DNA of 38,399 nt from a virus (taxonomy: Duplodnaviria; Caudoviricetes): positions 1 to 38,399 of the IMG/VR virus record IMGVR_UViG_3300017540_000011; one strand, given 5' to 3'. The notes under the pieces were generated by a model, which was not told where the DNA came from, did not search any database, and saw nothing but the letters and a program-made list of their open reading frames with translations. The position numbers were made by a program, and so were the translations under genes. Shown piece by piece: positions 13,116 to 38,352 of the stretch. How positions within the stretch are numbered: the first letter of the stretch is position 1; every line of letters starts with the position of its first letter.

Positions 13116-13475
13116 GTGACCCTCGAGCTGCCCTGGCCACCCACCGCGAACAACCTCCACGCCGTCGTCCGCGGCCGCAAGGTCCTCAGCCGCAAAGGCC
13201 GCGAGTACCGGGCCCAAGCCGCCGCGCAGCTCGCAATGCAAGCCGCTCCACGCCTCGGCGACGCCCGCCTCGCCATCACCCTCACCCTCCACCCACCCGA
13301 CCGCCGCCGCCGAGACATCGCCAACAGCGAAAAGGCCGCCATCGACGCCCTCGTCTACGCCGGCGTCCTCCACGACGACAGCCAGATCGACCGCCTGACC
13401 ATCGTCCGCGCCGAGCCGCGCGCCGGGGGCGCGCTCACAGTCACGATCGAGGAGATGGGGGAAACCAGACCGTGA
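13116..13475 (+). CDS. rusA: RusA-family Holliday junction resolvase
   Basis: LPWPPTANN, PPDRRRRDIANSEKAAIDAL, DDSQI. Confidence 0.9.
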   Translation: MTLELPWPPTANNLHAVVRGRKVLSRKGREYRAQAAAQLAMQAAPRLGDARLAITLTLHPPDRRRRDIANSEKAAIDALVYAGVLHDDSQIDRLTIVRAEPRAGGALTVTIEEMGETRP

Positions 13476-13951
13476 ACCAACCTGCTACCATTGCTCCAGC
13501 ACCGCCCCTCCGGGGCGCACGAATCCCCGCGAAGGAGGCGGCGGTGCGACTCGTCATCCCCGGCAGACCACAAAGCAGAGCCCGCAACGCCAAAGGCCAG
13601 GCGCTGCAGGCCGCGCACGCCTACCACGAGTCCGTCCGCCACCACGCCCGCCAAGCCGGTCTCGGCAAGGACGGCCACCCCCACGCGCCAGACGCCTGCA
13701 TCGCCGTCTGGCTCACCTTCGTCTACACCTCCACCAAGCTCGACCTCCCACCCACCGCCTGGCCCGCCGAGAACATCCCCCACGCCCACCGGGCCCCGGA
13801 GATCTCACTACTCGCCCTGACCGGCCTCGCGTTCACCAGCGTCTCCCAGGCCAACCCGCTCATCGTCACCCGCGTCGTCCTCACGCCCGAAGAGTGCCAG
13901 GCTCGCTACGGCAGCGCCGACGGCGCCACGGTCATCGAGATCGAGGCCTGA
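13472..13951 (+). CDS. Hypothetical protein, degenerate RusA-like fold
   Basis: LVIPGRPQSRAR, VWLTFVY, ALTGLAF...SQ, TVIEIE pattern without catalytic Asp residues. Confidence 0.6.
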   Translation: MNQPATIAPAPPLRGARIPAKEAAVRLVIPGRPQSRARNAKGQALQAAHAYHESVRHHARQAGLGKDGHPHAPDACIAVWLTFVYTSTKLDLPPTAWPAENIPHAHRAPEISLLALTGLAFTSVSQANPLIVTRVVLTPEECQARYGSADGATVIEIEA

Positions 13952-18337: not shown

Positions 18338-18979
18338 TTATGTCGGCGACTCCGGCGTAGTCACGTATACATCGGCGCCCTCGAAGGCCCGCGTCACGAT
18401 CCAGGTCTGTTGGTGTAGGAGCGGCCCCGTAGGCGCGTAAAGATAGCGCACGGAAATCTCGGCTCGGTTGGTGGGAGGCGCCTTCTCCGGAAGCCGCTCG
18501 CCGAGATCGTTCTCCGTGTCGGAGTACCAGTTGGGGAAGGCATGAATCCAGGTCTCCTGCCCTGGGGCCAAGCCGGCTTGACGTGCGTGTCCCTTGATGG
18601 AGACAGGCTCGTCCGGATCTTGTTTCGCAGAGTTGAGCACAACGTATATCCAGACGTGGTGCCGGCTCAGGTTTACCAGGTTCAACTTTCCCTCGCTCCT
18701 GATGCCGTTCTCTGGTACCAGCAATAGGTTCGGTGTGAACTCCAACTCGAGTTGCTTTTGGAGCCCCTCTATCTGCTTCTCGCTTGCCCGTGCCATCTTG
18801 CTGGTCTCGTGGGTATACCGCCAAGTGACCCAGACCAATGCAGCTGTCAGGCCGATACTTGAGGCAACGTTCAAGCGGTTCAGGGTGTTGTCAGTGAAGC
18901 CCGGTACGAGCAGCACTGCCGCGATGAGACTTCCCACGGCGACCAGGCCCGCGACGGTCTTCCAGCCAATTGGACTCAT
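18338..18979 (-). CDS. Moron: membrane protein with two N-terminal TM helices
   Basis: Antisense to the late operon; lower GC; TM helices, short coiled coil, soluble domain. Confidence 0.75.
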   Translation of the reverse strand: MSPIGWKTVAGLVAVGSLIAAVLLVPGFTDNTLNRLNVASSIGLTAALVWVTWRYTHETSKMARASEKQIEGLQKQLELEFTPNLLLVPENGIRSEGKLNLVNLSRHHVWIYVVLNSAKQDPDEPVSIKGHARQAGLAPGQETWIHAFPNWYSDTENDLGERLPEKAPPTNRAEISVRYLYAPTGPLLHQQTWIVTRAFEGADVYVTTPESPT

Positions 18980-19008: not shown

Positions 19009-19037
19009 TGGACACGCCCGCTGTCAGCCTGTAGTCT
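19009..19037 (+). promoter_or_regulatory. Putative promoter for the capsid/tail operon
   Basis: TGGACA-17 nt-TAGTCT. Confidence 0.6.
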
Positions 19038-19049
19038 CGACATAGCTTC

Positions 19050-19096
19050 GGCCCTCCGGGCCGCGATTCGTCGCGAACCCGGAGGGCCTGTCTCTG
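19050..19096 (+). promoter_or_regulatory. SD-sequestering leader hairpin, copy 1
   Basis: GGCCCTCCGGG..CGCGA-TTCG-TCGCG..CCCGGAGGGCC; GGAGGG followed by 7 nt and an in-frame CTG. Confidence 0.75.
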
Positions 19097-21595
19097 TTCG
19101 GACGCCGTAACCACAACCTCCAGCGCCGCGCCGCGCCCGCCACAGCGGTGGGCGAGCCGCGCAGCGTCGACCTGACCGTCCGCGCCGGCGCCGGCGACAC
19201 CCTAATCCTCCGCGCCAGCAACGACACCGTCGTCGACCGGTACGGCACCGTCATCACCGCCGAGGCCCTCCTCAGGGACTGGTGGCCCGCCTACCAGCAG
19301 CACCGAACCGTCTCCCTCCAGCACAACCTGCCCCGGCTCCGCGAGATCGAAGGCCGGCCCATGGTCGGCCTCGCCACCCGCGTCGACTTCACCCCCCAGC
19401 TAGAGGTCGAGGTCAAGGTCCTCGACCAACGCACCCTCGACCTCGTCCGCGCCGGCAAGGTGCGCAGCGCCAGCCTCGAGTTCGTCCCCCTCGAGGTCGA
19501 ACGCCGCACCGTCGAGGGCAAACCGGCCGAGGTCTACCACCGCCTCTCCCCAGAGCCTGAACACGCCGGCCTGAGCCTCGTCGACGTGCCGGGCGTGCCC
19601 GGCGCCGACCTCCTCAACATCCGGACCCTACCCGCCCTTTGGGCGTTCGCCGTCGTCGACCCGAAGGTCCTGAACGGCGAGGTCACCGACCCCGACCTGG
19701 TGCGGCAGCTGGCGTGGCTGCCTCATCACGACGAACGCAGCCACGCCGTCGACGAGCAGCTGCTGGCCCGAGCGCTCGCCGACCTCGAAGCGGGCCGAGT
19801 CCACGTCCCAGCGCACGCCAGCCTCTCGCCGGCGCAGGTGCTGGAGAGAGCCCGCGCTCACCTCGAGCGACACACCAGCCTCCGCCTCGGCAGGAGGGCC
19901 GAGGCTGAGACCCCAAAGGAGGGGGAGATGAAGGACAAGTGGATCCAGGCTCGCGCCGCCCAGTACCAGGCGGAGGGCCTTAACGAGCAGGACGCCGCGG
20001 CCAAGGCCAAGGCGGACTACGACAAGCTGGCGCCCGACGTCAGGGCCAAGCTCGAGGGCAAGGCCACCGACCAGGCCACCGGCGACGACACCGAAGCCAA
20101 GGGGCTCCTCGCGCGCCTCTTCGGCGGCCGCGCGGCTGGTGGTGACGTGCACGTGCACCTCACCCAGCCCGCCCCCGATGCGCAGGTGCAGGCGCGCGCC
20201 GAGCGCGAGGCGAAGCCCGACCAGGACACAAAGGCCGAGGAGAAGCCGGCCGTCGGCCAGGCGCAGGCGCGCACCGCCCGCGACGAGTGGCTCGAGGCCC
20301 GAGCCGCGCTGCTCCAGGTCGAAGAGGGCCTCACGCCGGCGCAGGCGCGCACCGCCGCGCAGGAGCAGCTCGACGCCGACCTCGGCCTCCAGGCCAGGCT
20401 CGCCGCCGCTCCCGCCCCCACGGCCGCCGCCGGCGACGCCGTGGCGCACCTGCCGCCGGAGATCAGGGCGCTGCTCGCCCGGCCCGAGCAGCCCATGGCC
20501 GCCATCGCCTCGGGCCTGCGCGTCCGCAGCCCCAGGCTCGAGGGCGACCAGCTCCTCGCCGAGGTCCTCATGCGCACGGTCGTCCCGCAGGTCGGCCGCC
20601 AGCGCCCGTCGACCAGGCAGCTGACCGAGGCCTACAACATGCTCGCCGAGGCTGGCATCCACTCGCGCGCCCTCTCCATCGAGACCGACGGCACGGTCAT
20701 CCGTGAGGAGCTCGCGCGCCAGTTCGTGGTCAAGCCCGAGCCGGACGTCGTCTTCCGCAACCACATGCGGAGCGTGCCGATGGCCGGCGTCAAGAAGCAG
20801 ACCTTCCCCCGCTTCGACAGGGCCGGCATCACGCACGAGTGGGGCCGCACCTCGACCGACCCGATCACGGACAGCGAGCCCACGCTCGACACGTTCGACA
20901 TCGAGGTCAGCGAGCTGAACTCGAAGGTCGTCGTGCCCGACTCCTTCCAGATGTTCAACGCCCAGGGCATGTCCTTCGTGGCGCAGAACCTGCTCCCGGC
21001 CATGCGCGGCGCCGCCCAGTACGAGGAGGACCGGGCGTTCTTCATGAGCACCGGCACCGCCACGGACCCGGCCACGTTCAAGGGCCTCCGCAGCGTCACC
21101 GGCGTGACCAGCGTCAGCGCCAGCACGAACGGCGACGCCTTCGACCTCAGCATCCTCTCGAGCCTGCTGAGGGCGATGCCGGTCGCGTTCCGGTCCGACG
21201 TGGCCAGGCTCGCGTTCTACATGCCCATCAGCCTCGCCGACGACTTCGCCGAGATCATCAGCGAACGCGCCACCGTCCTCGGTGACCGCCTCCTGTCCGA
21301 GGCGAGCGGCGTCGGCCCGCGCGCCTTCGGCATGTACCGCGGCGTGCCCGTGTACGGGATCTCGCACCTGCCCAACAACGAGACCCAGGGTGGGTCGACG
21401 GACTGCGGCACGGTGTTCCTCGTGCACCGGGACATCCCGGTCATCGGTGACGCGCTCACCATCAGGATCGAGCCGTACCGGCGCGAGAACTTCATCGACG
21501 TACTGCAGCTGCAGGCGTGGGTGGGTCTCGGGTACCAGTTCCCGGCCGGCGTCGTGCGCCGCGTCGGCGTCCGTCCGCGCCTCCAGGGCGAGTGA
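19094..21595 (+). CDS. Fused prohead protease-scaffold-major capsid protein (HK97 fold); start CTG 19094 or GTG 19148
   Basis: VDRYGTVI, LQH, SASLEF, LSLVDVP protease motifs; helical middle region; C-terminal capsid (EEDRAFFM.TG, FKGL, YRGVPVY). Confidence 0.88.
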   Translation: MFGRRNHNLQRRAAPATAVGEPRSVDLTVRAGAGDTLILRASNDTVVDRYGTVITAEALLRDWWPAYQQHRTVSLQHNLPRLREIEGRPMVGLATRVDFTPQLEVEVKVLDQRTLDLVRAGKVRSASLEFVPLEVERRTVEGKPAEVYHRLSPEPEHAGLSLVDVPGVPGADLLNIRTLPALWAFAVVDPKVLNGEVTDPDLVRQLAWLPHHDERSHAVDEQLLARALADLEAGRVHVPAHASLSPAQVLERARAHLERHTSLRLGRRAEAETPKEGEMKDKWIQARAAQYQAEGLNEQDAAAKAKADYDKLAPDVRAKLEGKATDQATGDDTEAKGLLARLFGGRAAGGDVHVHLTQPAPDAQVQARAEREAKPDQDTKAEEKPAVGQAQARTARDEWLEARAALLQVEEGLTPAQARTAAQEQLDADLGLQARLAAAPAPTAAAGDAVAHLPPEIRALLARPEQPMAAIASGLRVRSPRLEGDQLLAEVLMRTVVPQVGRQRPSTRQLTEAYNMLAEAGIHSRALSIETDGTVIREELARQFVVKPEPDVVFRNHMRSVPMAGVKKQTFPRFDRAGITHEWGRTSTDPITDSEPTLDTFDIEVSELNSKVVVPDSFQMFNAQGMSFVAQNLLPAMRGAAQYEEDRAFFMSTGTATDPATFKGLRSVTGVTSVSASTNGDAFDLSILSSLLRAMPVAFRSDVARLAFYMPISLADDFAEIISERATVLGDRLLSEASGVGPRAFGMYRGVPVYGISHLPNNETQGGSTDCGTVFLVHRDIPVIGDALTIRIEPYRRENFIDVLQLQAWVGLGYQFPAGVVRRVGVRPRLQGE

Positions 21596-33683: not shown

Positions 33684-34366
33684 TGTTCCCCTCTGTACAC
33701 GGCATCGTTAGCCAAGGCGGAGCCGGAGCGGTCCCGCCCGTCACCGCCTACAGCGTGCACTTCAACGGCAGCACCCAATACGGCACCCTGGCTGACAAGC
33801 CGCTGTTCGACGCAACCGAGTTCACTCTTGAGGCTTGGATCAAGCCTGACACGGCGCCCGCCAGTCACTTCATCCTTGACCGTAACGCCGCCAGCGACTT
33901 TGGCCTGCGGTGGCTACGATTGAACACCGGCAAGCTCAGCATGGCGTTCTACATCGGCGACTCCCTGTACGAGGCTGTCGGCACCACGACCATCAGCACC
34001 GGCGTATGGACGCACGTCGCTGGAGTGTTCAACGGCACCACGGCGAAGCTGTACGTCAATGGCGTCGAGGACGGCAGCCTAGCCGCCGTCGGTTCGGCGA
34101 ACTCAGGCGCCGCTCCGTTCACCATCGGGAGGTCAAACAGGTTCGGGCATTACTTCGATGGGAAGATCGTCGACGCTCGGTACTGGTCGAGTGACCGCAG
34201 TGCATCCGTCGGCGCGGCAATAACCGGCGCGGAAGCCGACCTGGTGTTCGCGATGGACCGCGACGGGCAAACCGGTTCCGGCGTGGTCTGGAAGGACGCC
34301 GGACCGAACGGGTACGACTTCACGCTCGTGAACGCGCCTACGTGGTCGACGGACGTGCCCACCTGA
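33683..34366 (+). CDS. LamG/ConA-like lectin domain protein (putative receptor-binding)
   Basis: FTLEAWIKP, WTHVAGVFNG, LYVNG, FDGKIVDARYW. Confidence 0.85.
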   Translation: MFPSVHGIVSQGGAGAVPPVTAYSVHFNGSTQYGTLADKPLFDATEFTLEAWIKPDTAPASHFILDRNAASDFGLRWLRLNTGKLSMAFYIGDSLYEAVGTTTISTGVWTHVAGVFNGTTAKLYVNGVEDGSLAAVGSANSGAAPFTIGRSNRFGHYFDGKIVDARYWSSDRSASVGAAITGAEADLVFAMDRDGQTGSGVVWKDAGPNGYDFTLVNAPTWSTDVPT

Positions 34367-34982
34367 CCGGCCGGCCCGGCACCTGGACAGCCACACCGGC
34401 AGCCTCGAGCGCCTTCATGGCGTGGTGCACCTGCGTGCGGTCCACGCCGAGCGCCTGGGCCAGCTCGACAGCTGTGCGCGGCGTGCCGTCGAGGGCAGCG
34501 GCTAGGCGGTCCCTGAACGGCCTGGGACTGTCAGCGCGGGCCGCCACCAGCGCTGGCGTGGGCGCGGTGCGCGGCTCGGCGACGAGCCACCGCTCGGCGC
34601 CCGGAGCGAGCTGCCACCGGTCGCCCGCGCGGATGGTGAGGCCGACGCGGCCGAGGAGCGACAGGGCGGCAGAGACACTCGGCCTTTCGAAGCCGGTCTG
34701 GGCCGCGACCTCGACGGCGCGGAGGGGCCCGTGGTCCCTCAACGCGACCAACATCATTCGGTAGGAGGGCGTGACTGCCTCCTTCGGCGGCACCTCTCCA
34801 GGCGCATCGACACCAGCCGCCCTGACCACCAGGGCGCCGTCGCGGAGCTCCAGTGTCACCCGGGGGTCTTCCCGGTTGATGCCGAGGGCGACGACCAGCT
34901 CTCGGGGCACTCGGAGGCTCAAGCTGTTACCATCGCGTTGCAGACGGGCTTCTCGACGGGCCACCGGCCTAGCATCCCCCAC
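34338..34982 (-). CDS. AbrB/MazE-type regulator fused to two winged-HTH domains (alternative start GTG 34964)
   Basis: LQRDGNSLSLRVPRELVVALGI...LVVR; GPLRAVEVAAQTGFERPSVSAALSLL; TAVELAQALGVDRTQVHHAMKALEAAG. Confidence 0.8.
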   Translation of the reverse strand: MGDARPVARREARLQRDGNSLSLRVPRELVVALGINREDPRVTLELRDGALVVRAAGVDAPGEVPPKEAVTPSYRMMLVALRDHGPLRAVEVAAQTGFERPSVSAALSLLGRVGLTIRAGDRWQLAPGAERWLVAEPRTAPTPALVAARADSPRPFRDRLAAALDGTPRTAVELAQALGVDRTQVHHAMKALEAAGVAVQVPGRPVRWARPSTT

Positions 34983-35132: not shown

Positions 35133-35504
35133 ATGCGTCAGAACGCCAAGGGTTTCACGCTCATCGAGCTGCTGATCGTCATCGCGATCATCGGCATCCT
35201 CGCCGCGGTACTCATCCCGAACCTGATGAGGGCCCGCCAGGTCGCCGTCGACCGCGCCGCTCAAGGCTATGTGCAGAATGTGTACACTGCCGCGAACGCA
35301 TACATGGCGGAGAACGTTCAGGCCAGCGCCGCAACGACCGTCGCGATCGACAACGACTGTAAGGACGGCGTGACTTACGGGCAGTACAGCGCGAAGCAGC
35401 CGAGCTTCACGATCGACACCTGCACCGTAGCCGCTGGCGCTACCGGCATTACGGTGAGCCTGACGTACCAAGGCGGCACTTCAACCACGGCCAGCATTCC
35501 GTAA
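35133..35504 (+). CDS. pilA: Type IVa pilin (major-pilin-like)
   Basis: Class III signal MRQNAKG|FTLIELLIVIAIIGILAAVLIPNL with Glu5; two Cys in the globular domain; AGGAGG SD. Confidence 0.93.
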   Translation: MRQNAKGFTLIELLIVIAIIGILAAVLIPNLMRARQVAVDRAAQGYVQNVYTAANAYMAENVQASAATTVAIDNDCKDGVTYGQYSAKQPSFTIDTCTVAAGATGITVSLTYQGGTSTTASIP

Positions 35505-35520: not shown

Positions 35521-35555
35521 GAAGTCGGCCGCCCTCCGGGGCGGCCTTCTTATTT
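35521..35555 (+). terminator. Intrinsic terminator after the pilin gene
   Basis: GGCCGCCC-TCCG-GGGCGGCC followed by TTCTTATTT. Confidence 0.85.
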
Positions 35556-35579: not shown

Positions 35580-35642
35580 TAGAATCCAGCCATCTACGGC
35601 CCTCCGGGCCGCGAGCAATCGCGGACGGAGGGCTGTCTCATA
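35580..35642 (+). promoter_or_regulatory. -10 box (TAGAAT) plus SD-sequestering leader hairpin, copy 2
   Basis: CGGCCCTCCG..CCGCGA-GCAA-TCGCGG.CGGAGGGCTG; GGAGGG followed by 7 nt and an in-frame ATA. Confidence 0.75.
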
Positions 35643-36158
35643 CCAGCTCCGACACAGAACGACCTCATCAGAGCCGCCGCCTGGCAAGCCGCCCGGGGCC
35701 AACTAGCCGGCCTCCCCAAGGACCCGTACTGGTGCCTGAGGTTCGTGCGCCTGATCATCGAGCGCGCCCTCGGCCTCAGGGACGGCGAGCTCTACCAGCG
35801 CTACCTCATCGCCGGCACCAGCCGCCGCCCCGGCACGCCTGAGCAGCGACTCGCCGCCGCCCGCAAGGACGTCTGGGCCTCGGACATGGAGGCCTCCGCC
35901 AAGCTCGGCGGATGGGGCGTCCCCTTCGCCGACAGGCAACCCGGCGACCTCCTCTTCAACTACCGCGCCGCCGAACCCCAAGGGCACGTCGCCATCCTCA
36001 TCGACCGCAACACGGTCATCGAGAACGCACCCCAAGGCAACCGCCCCATCTCGATCCACCTCCCCAACTCCATGTGCATCACGCCCGTCGAGGCCCTGTC
36101 ATGGACCCTCGCCGCGCGCGTGCCCGACCTGACGGGAGGTGGGAACCACTCCGGCTGA
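35640..36158 (+). CDS. Putative endolysin, NlpC/P60-CHAP cysteine peptidase (non-canonical ATA start)
   Basis: WCLRFVR (Cys, upstream of the track start), QPGDLLF, GHVAI, VIEN; precedes holin-like genes. Confidence 0.75.
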   Translation: MPAPTQNDLIRAAAWQAARGQLAGLPKDPYWCLRFVRLIIERALGLRDGELYQRYLIAGTSRRPGTPEQRLAAARKDVWASDMEASAKLGGWGVPFADRQPGDLLFNYRAAEPQGHVAILIDRNTVIENAPQGNRPISIHLPNSMCITPVEALSWTLAARVPDLTGGGNHSG

Positions 36159-38236: not shown

Positions 38237-38258
38237 CGGCGCCCCTCTCGGGGCGCCG
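38237..38258 (-). terminator. Phage-borne post-tRNA GNRA hairpin
   Basis: Minus-strand RNA CGGCGCCCC-GAGA-GGGGCGCCG, 18 nt after CCA; homologous to 223..248. Confidence 0.55.
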
Positions 38259-38275
38259 TGCCTCACGCGTTTTTC

Positions 38276-38352
<77 letters not shown>

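Follow-up and report, generated by a model that had tools for sequence, protein, structure and literature searches.

The capsid gene and the putative endolysin gene of the prophage studied here are each preceded by a short leader RNA. The two leaders very probably belong to a conserved family in temperate phages and prophages of Deinococcota, whose members are predicted to adopt two alternative folds and stand before late genes. The window, i.e. the whole stretch of 38,399 nucleotides analysed, is one whole temperate siphovirus-like prophage with att repeats (225-310 and 38237-38322) at a tRNA-Ala gene. According to PHROGs it carries integrase, repressor, recombination, replication, terminase, head, tail and lysis genes. 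Its host is Trueperaceae-like, and relatives of its capsid come from Trueperaceae and Thermaceae records. The INPHARED set contains no cultured phage matching the window capsid or the RusA-fold protein called X here (Table 1). Peptide scans with the window lysin and with P0049 returned zero viral relatives.

Table 1. Leader elements and associated genes in the window
Feature	Position	Strand	Remarks
Ordinary RusA resolvase gene	13116-13475	+	upstream of X; not kept across the family
Protein X	13472-13951	+	RusA-fold, directly before terS; gene callers begin at residue 25
-10-like box, copy 1 (TAGTCT)	19032-19037	+	predicted start A19044
5' mini-hairpin GGCCC-UCC-GGGCC, copy 1	19050-19062	+	predicted ON fold, first to form in transcription
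Inner hairpin, copy 1	19062-19075	+	in both folds; sequence and loop variable among relatives
Long SD-burying hairpin, copy 1	19050-19088	+	predicted OFF fold; 19050-60 pairs with 19078-88; SD GGAGGG 19081-86
Prohead-protease/scaffold-major capsid fusion gene	19094-21595	+	Pfam Phage_capsid; putative CTG start
-10-like box, copy 2 (TAGAAT)	35580-35585	+	predicted start A35592; pilin terminator 35527-35546 upstream
5' mini-hairpin, copy 2	35598-35610	+	sequence identical to copy 1
Long SD-burying hairpin, copy 2	35595-35636	+	SD GGAGGG 35627-32
Putative endolysin	35640-36158	+	weak NlpC/P60 match, E 0.006, below cutoff; putative ATA start

Leader copies in the window and their relatives

An earlier sequence-only reading had described both long hairpins, the GGAGGG within each, an in-frame CTG or ATA 7 nt later and a -10-like box upstream. 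All of this is confirmed, with predicted folding energies of -32.9 and -32.1 kcal/mol and with both boxes ending 12 nt 5' of GGCCC. The loops UUCG and GCAA, which it had assigned to stable classes, are present, but an A-U pair closes each of them, and among relatives the inner loop varies in length and sequence. Two features had been overlooked, namely the self-complementary 5' arm GGCCC-TCC-GGGCC, which forms a mini-hairpin as an alternative to the SD-burying helix, and a U-rich tail that gives most copies a terminator-like look. Common to both window copies are an exact 18-mer (19049-66 and 35597-614), CGGAGGGC and TGTCTC. The string CTGTCTC resembles a library adapter. Its origin as an adapter remnant was rejected, as both copies lie in conserved frames and relatives vary there.

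A family descriptor (-10 box, CCC-n3-5-GGG and a complementary SD arm), written after the family was seen, matches exactly the two known sites in the window. On 200 order-4 Markov simulations it gave no site in 193, one site in 6 and two sites in 1. No third leader copy was found 5' of terS. Rfam, which the sequence-only reading had proposed to search, gave no match at E<=1 over either window copy, nor in 13 related loci. In searches of the open-access literature neither the motif nor X turned up; the supplements of large RNA-motif screens lie outside this scope and could describe the motif.

Related loci were fetched via the capsid protein and not via the RNA. A model built from 26 copies was run against 43 sources and gave a match at E<1e-5 directly before the capsid gene in 40 of them, one of which is cut by a contig end and many of which are duplicates. 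L036 begins inside the capsid gene, and L003 (phage G005) and L043, a 3-kb fragment, are without the element and have a plain SD with GTG or ATG. The anatomy described below refers to 38 distinct copies (39 given, one duplicate dropped; 8 later copies left out). Five phages, the window and G001-G004, carry both a capsid and an endolysin copy. The endolysins behind the leader are of four apparently unrelated types: NlpC/P60-like and GH19-like (both below the Pfam cutoff), amidase_3, and a fourth type without Pfam match that is M15-like by eye. In the prophage of G129 the copies stand before the capsid and tape measure genes, and none was seen before the lysin gene.

A promoter-inclusive model, with a few dozen candidates scored per genome, matched at least 12 of 68, at least 3 of 128 and at least 1 of 125 genomes in three host families. 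Among the 25 genome matches listed, 22 stand before virion or lysis genes or their remnants, 2 before no ORF and 1 before an HTH_17 gene; none of these 25 precedes a host housekeeping gene. The HTH_17 case (L269/L279; G188:C202:6-303, minus strand) is a motif copy with a perfect long helix before a 67-aa, excisionase-like gene at the contig end. This gene has its own SD and ATG approximately 25 nt 3' of the hairpin. With this SD outside the hairpin, the element may act on transcription too, and the locus is possibly a satellite or island sensing the late activator of a helper phage.

Many Thermaceae genomes contain remnants consisting of a head-morphogenesis/cargo gene, the promoter, the motif and a truncated capsid 5' end (for example G009, G010, G185, G187, G190, G192, G198, G205 and L047-L050). 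By eye, the cargo upstream often resembles the variable extensions of MuF-type cassettes, here of metallopeptidase type (HExxH). An extra small hairpin is located between the -10 box and the mini-hairpin at L028:9864-9900 and L106:1470-1500. A weak motif-like site with SD arm and ATG (L114; G179:C2:364312-364362) lies on another replicon and has a short downstream ORF. The other weak R1 matches in host chromosomes (L107, L109 and L111-L116 apart from L114) were read and dropped as terminators or chance, and a weak match in G315 (L258) was dropped as it is without mini-hairpin. When viral sequences were scanned with a pattern of the Trueperaceae form, 11 loci matched, each of them an unrelated terminator-like sequence or a chance match. 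Viral contigs were also scanned for promoter plus mini-hairpin (117 loci, 17 of 64 parts); 3 loci passed the pairing filter and none stands before a capsid or lysin gene, in a scan that is weak because its filter missed the known copy L194.

Two predicted, mutually exclusive folds

The 5' arm of the leader is self-complementary, with 3-6 Watson-Crick pairs around a loop of 3-4 nt, and the same arm also pairs with the SD strand. The mini-hairpin (CCC-nnn-GGG) and the SD-burying helix are mutually exclusive. Structural conservation in homologues, for which the sequence-only reading had asked to look, is present: both folds show compensatory changes, and the leader therefore looks like a two-state switch. 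For the mini-hairpin, pairing is kept in 97.7% of 129 cells from 26 sequences, two of the five pairs are changed on both sides, and the pairing score exceeds all shuffles and slid controls. The long helix keeps pairing in 87.5% of 360 cells from 36 sequences, with double changes in 6 of 10 pairs. This count supersedes a scoring on MAFFT alignment A2, which was weak because the poly-G arms were misregistered.

At position -4 three strands change together, with G:C:C in 12 and C:G:G in 22 of 35 triloop copies. In the capsid tree (30 rows, short remnants left out) this change forms one clade, so that independent covariation events are few; position -5 and the loop take several states. Pairing between the first loop and the SD arm is fully Watson-Crick in 30 of the 38 copies, with seven different loop/SD pairs, while two copies have a G-U pair and six one mismatch. 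The first loop has 3 nt in 35 copies and 4 nt in three, and the second loop is variable. The G-run 3' of the loop is conserved also in copies whose long helix leaves it unused. The inner loop and inner stem have varied in length and sequence among the relatives.

This variability bears on a processing of the leader, in which an RNase would cut at the internal loop and the 5' piece would refold and leave, or on an internal late start from a promoter inside the hairpin. RNase III cuts leader RNA in T7 and lambda, and T4 lysozyme has a late promoter inside a hairpin. A helix of 16-17 bp with an internal loop would suit such a cut, and refolding of the 5' piece would aid its release. Against it stand the free variation of internal loop and inner stem, in size as well as in sequence, and the lack of nuclease residues in X, and a conserved second promoter motif was not seen; we regard this explanation as very improbable.

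The long helix has a median predicted energy of -31.7 kcal/mol at 37 °C compared to -19.4 kcal/mol for the two-hairpin fold, and its z scores range from -2.1 to -5.3. At 60 °C the predicted medians are -19.9 and -9.0 kcal/mol. An RNA thermometer with a marginal SD helix was rejected on the basis of this 60 °C prediction for the OFF fold. When the mini-hairpin is forced, 1-7 of the 7-8 SD-arm positions remain in weaker alternative pairs. In growing-chain folding, the optimal structure consists of mini-hairpin plus inner hairpin for as long as the chain ends before the SD. A DNA cruciform was rejected, as G-U pairs are frequent. The spacing from C-run to G-run differs between copies of one genome (3 and 5 nt in G002, 3 and 4 nt in G129), which is easier to reconcile with a hairpin than with a DNA operator of fixed geometry. 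The mini-hairpin sequence is lineage-specific, with GGCCC and TCCCC lineages, and common to both copies of a genome, as expected for a trans-acting partner or a recent duplication.

The order of folding would give a brief period of translatability even without a protein. In a factor-free kinetic switch, the transcript would be translatable briefly while the mini-hairpin and inner hairpin delay the long helix, and late output would be set by copy number or upstream read-through; put-like and thermometer behaviour are included here. X would then act elsewhere, e.g. at replication or packaging junctions, and its conservation beside terS could indeed mean a packaging role. Such a switch offers no discrimination between lysogen and lytic state for a constitutive-type promoter before an endolysin gene, the OFF fold is approximately 11 kcal/mol ahead at 60 °C, and the lineage-specific mini-hairpin shared within a genome points to a trans partner or recent duplication. 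We consider a switch without factor unlikely.

Promoter, tail and start codons

All 38 copies have a -10-like hexamer, chosen as the best-scoring site for each copy, at a distance of 7-26 nt upstream of the element. It is TGC-extended in 29, and an A is found at +7 in 26. In related contigs, which stem from three studies, the similarity to the window ends upstream of 19043/44, and they bring their own TGCTAACAT or TGCTACACT box at the same distance. A low-GC cargo gene without PHROGs or Pfam match (18338-18979, minus strand) runs divergently from the capsid promoter, and relatives exchange this cassette exactly up to 19043, each with its own -10 box. A second cargo gene (34345-34982, minus strand), between tail fibre and pilin, contains two winged-helix domains, and by eye its start is AbrB-like. 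The pilin is a prophage-borne type IV pilin gene (35133-35504, plus strand) with its own SD and terminator just 5' of the lysis module, possibly serving receptor masking or superinfection exclusion.

At least five T within 8 nt after the stem are found in 29 of the 38 copies; the window copies have 4 and 2, and a terminator scan did not call them. Most copies would be terminator-like, and the two window copies would terminate weakly or not at all. The GC content of 70% and the existence of look-alike terminators (L064) speak for an ordinary leader terminator or a chance GC-rich hairpin, with the mini-hairpin as a by-product. This explanation is largely refuted by the three-way covariation, the fixed distance of the -10 box, the overlap with SD and start, and the paired placement before capsid and lysin genes across three host families, and we give it hardly any weight.

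The first plausible in-frame start would be TTG in 22 copies, ATT in 7, CTG in 6, ATG in 2 and ATA in 1; in this count the lysin frame of G178 was mis-picked by the script, and L075 perhaps uses CTG rather than ATT. Both ATG codons belong to G129, which indicates that a non-AUG start is not essential. For the capsid gene of the window, the spacing between CTG 19094 and a conserved RAAP motif equals that found for the annotated starts in P0017, P0019 and P0027 and for the ATT in L001, and the CTG aligns with TTG, ATT and ATG starts of homologues. GTG 19148 was rejected as capsid start, since it has no SD with anti-SD pairing and conserved residues lie upstream of it. Comparison with homologues supports the sequence-only reading in its preference for CTG over this GTG and in its view that a cis-acting leader masks the SD in front of late genes with putative non-canonical starts.

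The capsid ORF joins protease-like, scaffold-like and capsid parts in 833 aa, with an internal SD and ATG near residue 279. Gene callers use this internal ATG for a 555-aa product (P0005), and it is a possible second, canonical start for scaffold and capsid. In the endolysin gene, the first ATG, GTG or TTG codon is GTG 35745, and its use would drop a Cys-bearing segment that is also present in the G005 homologue. ATC and CTG starts are described for dnaA and rpsL of Deinococcus (PMC2830850), which makes non-canonical starts plausible in the phylum. Capsid and lysin genes of this phage group, which probably start with TTG, ATT, CTG or ATA, are often called too short, and their annotation should be corrected.

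Protein X, the proposed switch and known systems

The sequence-only reading had recognised no late activator, and with X a candidate is now at hand. The predicted X fold (pLDDT 87) has RusA as best PDB and viral match, with a Foldseek E value of 3e-5 to 1q8r; no match to Pfam RusA (PF05866) was found. Residues D70, D72, K76 and D90/D91 of RusA are reported as critical (PMC1636454), and the window X has H, H, E and S/V at these positions. Compared to the RusA Holliday-junction resolvase of the same fold, X is without equivalents of D70, K76 and D90/D91, which are kept in 57-77 of 81 RusA-like rows. At D70, D80, D90 and D91, aspartate is not the commonest residue in 31 X-family rows, in contrast to D in 73-77 of the 81 RusA-like rows, and D72 is kept in 20 of the 31. 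The X family comprises approximately 30 clusters. Its net charge ranges from -4 to +7 and is not strongly basic, and it has no known RNA-binding fold. The ordinary RusA of the window has Ala at the D72 position and may be weakened; other phages of the group have a nuclease that is VRR-NUC-like by eye in place of this resolvase.

X stands directly before terS in the window, L028, G001-G004, G285, G286, G315 and G370, while the terminases and resolvases differ. Across seven whole or near-whole phages, the families present in six of six motif carriers and absent from G005 are X, a terminase and off-frame shadows. X is the only non-packaging family with this distribution, and a broad profile also found no X in the complete, motif-less G005. 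Within the phylum X occurs in 7 of 364 genomes, 5 of them with the motif and 2 fragments. X without the motif is found in G286 and G315, both without a capsid gene, and in G370, which ends at the portal, so that these three carry no information on the link. The motif without X is found in 11 genomes (G006, G007, G009, G010, G185, G187, G188, G190, G192, G198 and G205), which by their flanks are truncated-capsid remnants, sites before no ORF or before an HTH gene, or short MAG contigs. From these sequence comparisons, X is suggested as the best candidate for the trigger, a trans-acting late activator. The link between X and the leader is suggestive, as it is one of co-occurrence with a single complete negative (G005), and the 11 genomes with the motif alone count against it.

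Our tentative reading, which we hold to be somewhat short of an even chance, is an RNA switch that is off by default and that X would keep in the on state by binding, in the nascent RNA, the mini-hairpin or the two-hairpin fold. A host-type extended -10 promoter would start the RNA approximately 6 nt 5' of the element, also in the lysogen. According to the folding predictions, mini-hairpin and inner hairpin would form first. The GGA of the SD would then pair with the UCC loop and displace the identical GGGCC strand, giving the SD-burying hairpin that is approximately 12 kcal/mol more stable. In most copies the long hairpin with its U-rich tail would also terminate transcription, and any remaining leak would be lowered by the weak start codon. 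After induction, X would be made from the replication/terminase operon and, attached to the mini-hairpin or to the junction of the two hairpins, would hold the nascent RNA in this state. With the SD freed and the terminator prevented, the capsid-tail and lysis genes would be turned on together. A weak start on the gene of the most abundant virion protein counts against the switch model.

Alternatively, X or another factor would act on DNA or RNA polymerase in the manner of Q, loading at the promoter-proximal palindrome or pause and allowing read-through of the leader terminator; the mini-hairpin would be the pause or loading signal, and ribosomes would load before the long helix closes. The Q gene of lambdoid phages lies after rusA and before the late genes, and X has this position. 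The spacer varies while the CCC and GGG on either side of it are invariant, and the L269 copy would fit an action on transcription only. Furthermore, RusA folds are described to retain binding to DNA, duplex as well as branched, in inactive form (PMC1636454). On the other hand, the unequal spacing of C-run and G-run between copies of one genome and the poor U tails of the window copies disagree with this mechanism, and read-through alone leaves the SD buried in a helix of -32 kcal/mol. A Q-like action is rather unlikely in our judgement, if still the likeliest of the rivals.

The RNA switch held on by X can be taken further. A nuclease-dead RusA dimer would be recycled as RNA-binding late master switch that grips the junction-like two-hairpin leader and lifts both termination and SD occlusion for the capsid-tail and lysis operons. 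Non-AUG starts would be a second lock, and the putative satellite L269 may have borrowed the leader as helper sensor. As a whole this picture is possible, though more doubtful than not. The leader of 50 nt with a protein of 135-160 aa would make a small, testable on/off part, possibly heat-stable, for genetics in Thermus, Meiothermus and Deinococcus.

The leader would work like the BglG/RAT, ANTAR and Mu Com-mom switches and belongs to none of them. In the BglG/SacY-RAT and ANTAR (EutV, NasR, AmiR) antitermination systems, a protein stabilises one or more small hairpins that share sequence with the 5' strand of a terminator, so that hairpin and terminator exclude each other. The target of an ANTAR dimer is a pair of small hairpins; such targets make up regulons and in some cases extend over the RBS (PMC3369931). 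Two small hairpins overlapping a terminator or RBS are also what the predicted ON fold of the leader presents. In contrast to the hexaloops with A1/G4 of ANTAR targets, the leader has a variable triloop on an invariant stem, and it controls phage late genes instead of sugar or nitrogen genes, with a terminator arm that doubles as SD. PHROGs annotation of the 45 window ORFs and Pfam scans of 8 window proteins gave no CAT-PRD or ANTAR protein. Mu Com binds a short hairpin beside a translation-inhibition structure and exposes the GUG start of mom (PMC6483171), which resembles the leader in the neighbouring inhibitory structure and the non-AUG start. However, Com is a zinc finger that reads the loop CC(N)2-3GAG of one gene, while the leader loop has 3 variable nt and its candidate partner is a RusA fold. 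The short hairpin of the leader is moreover made from the 5' arm of the inhibitory helix itself and serves a multi-operon late regulon; by PHROGs, the window contains no Com-like protein.

Like the ON fold of the leader, the put RNA of HK022, which the sequence-only reading had offered as an option, consists of two neighbouring stems in nascent phage RNA close to the promoter. It is disfavoured here, since put works constitutively and is a stable two-stem fold with conserved stem II, while the two-stem fold of the leader is in the median 12 kcal/mol less stable than the SD-burying fold and its second stem is unconserved in sequence. Put is described to act alone on the beta' ZBD of RNA polymerase and on early genes (PMC9378689). 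The GafZ protein of the Caulobacter GTA is an example of late control comparable to that by Q (PMC11150451). The likeness of both to our system lies in the promoter, the leader terminator and a factor gene upstream, with X in the gene position of Q. By PHROGs, no Q- or GafZ-type protein is encoded in the window. In lambda pR'-tR'-Q, the leader terminator silences late and lysis genes until Q, encoded just upstream, acts. In contrast to Q and GafZ control, the conserved element of the leader is part of the transcript, where it would bury the SD in one of two predicted folds. Late control of temperate phages mostly proceeds through activators that bind DNA or polymerase (Q, RinA/Ltr types). If true, a bistable RNA leader as late regulon with a pseudo-resolvase as trigger would represent a third way of late control, and RNA binding would be a new function of the RusA fold.
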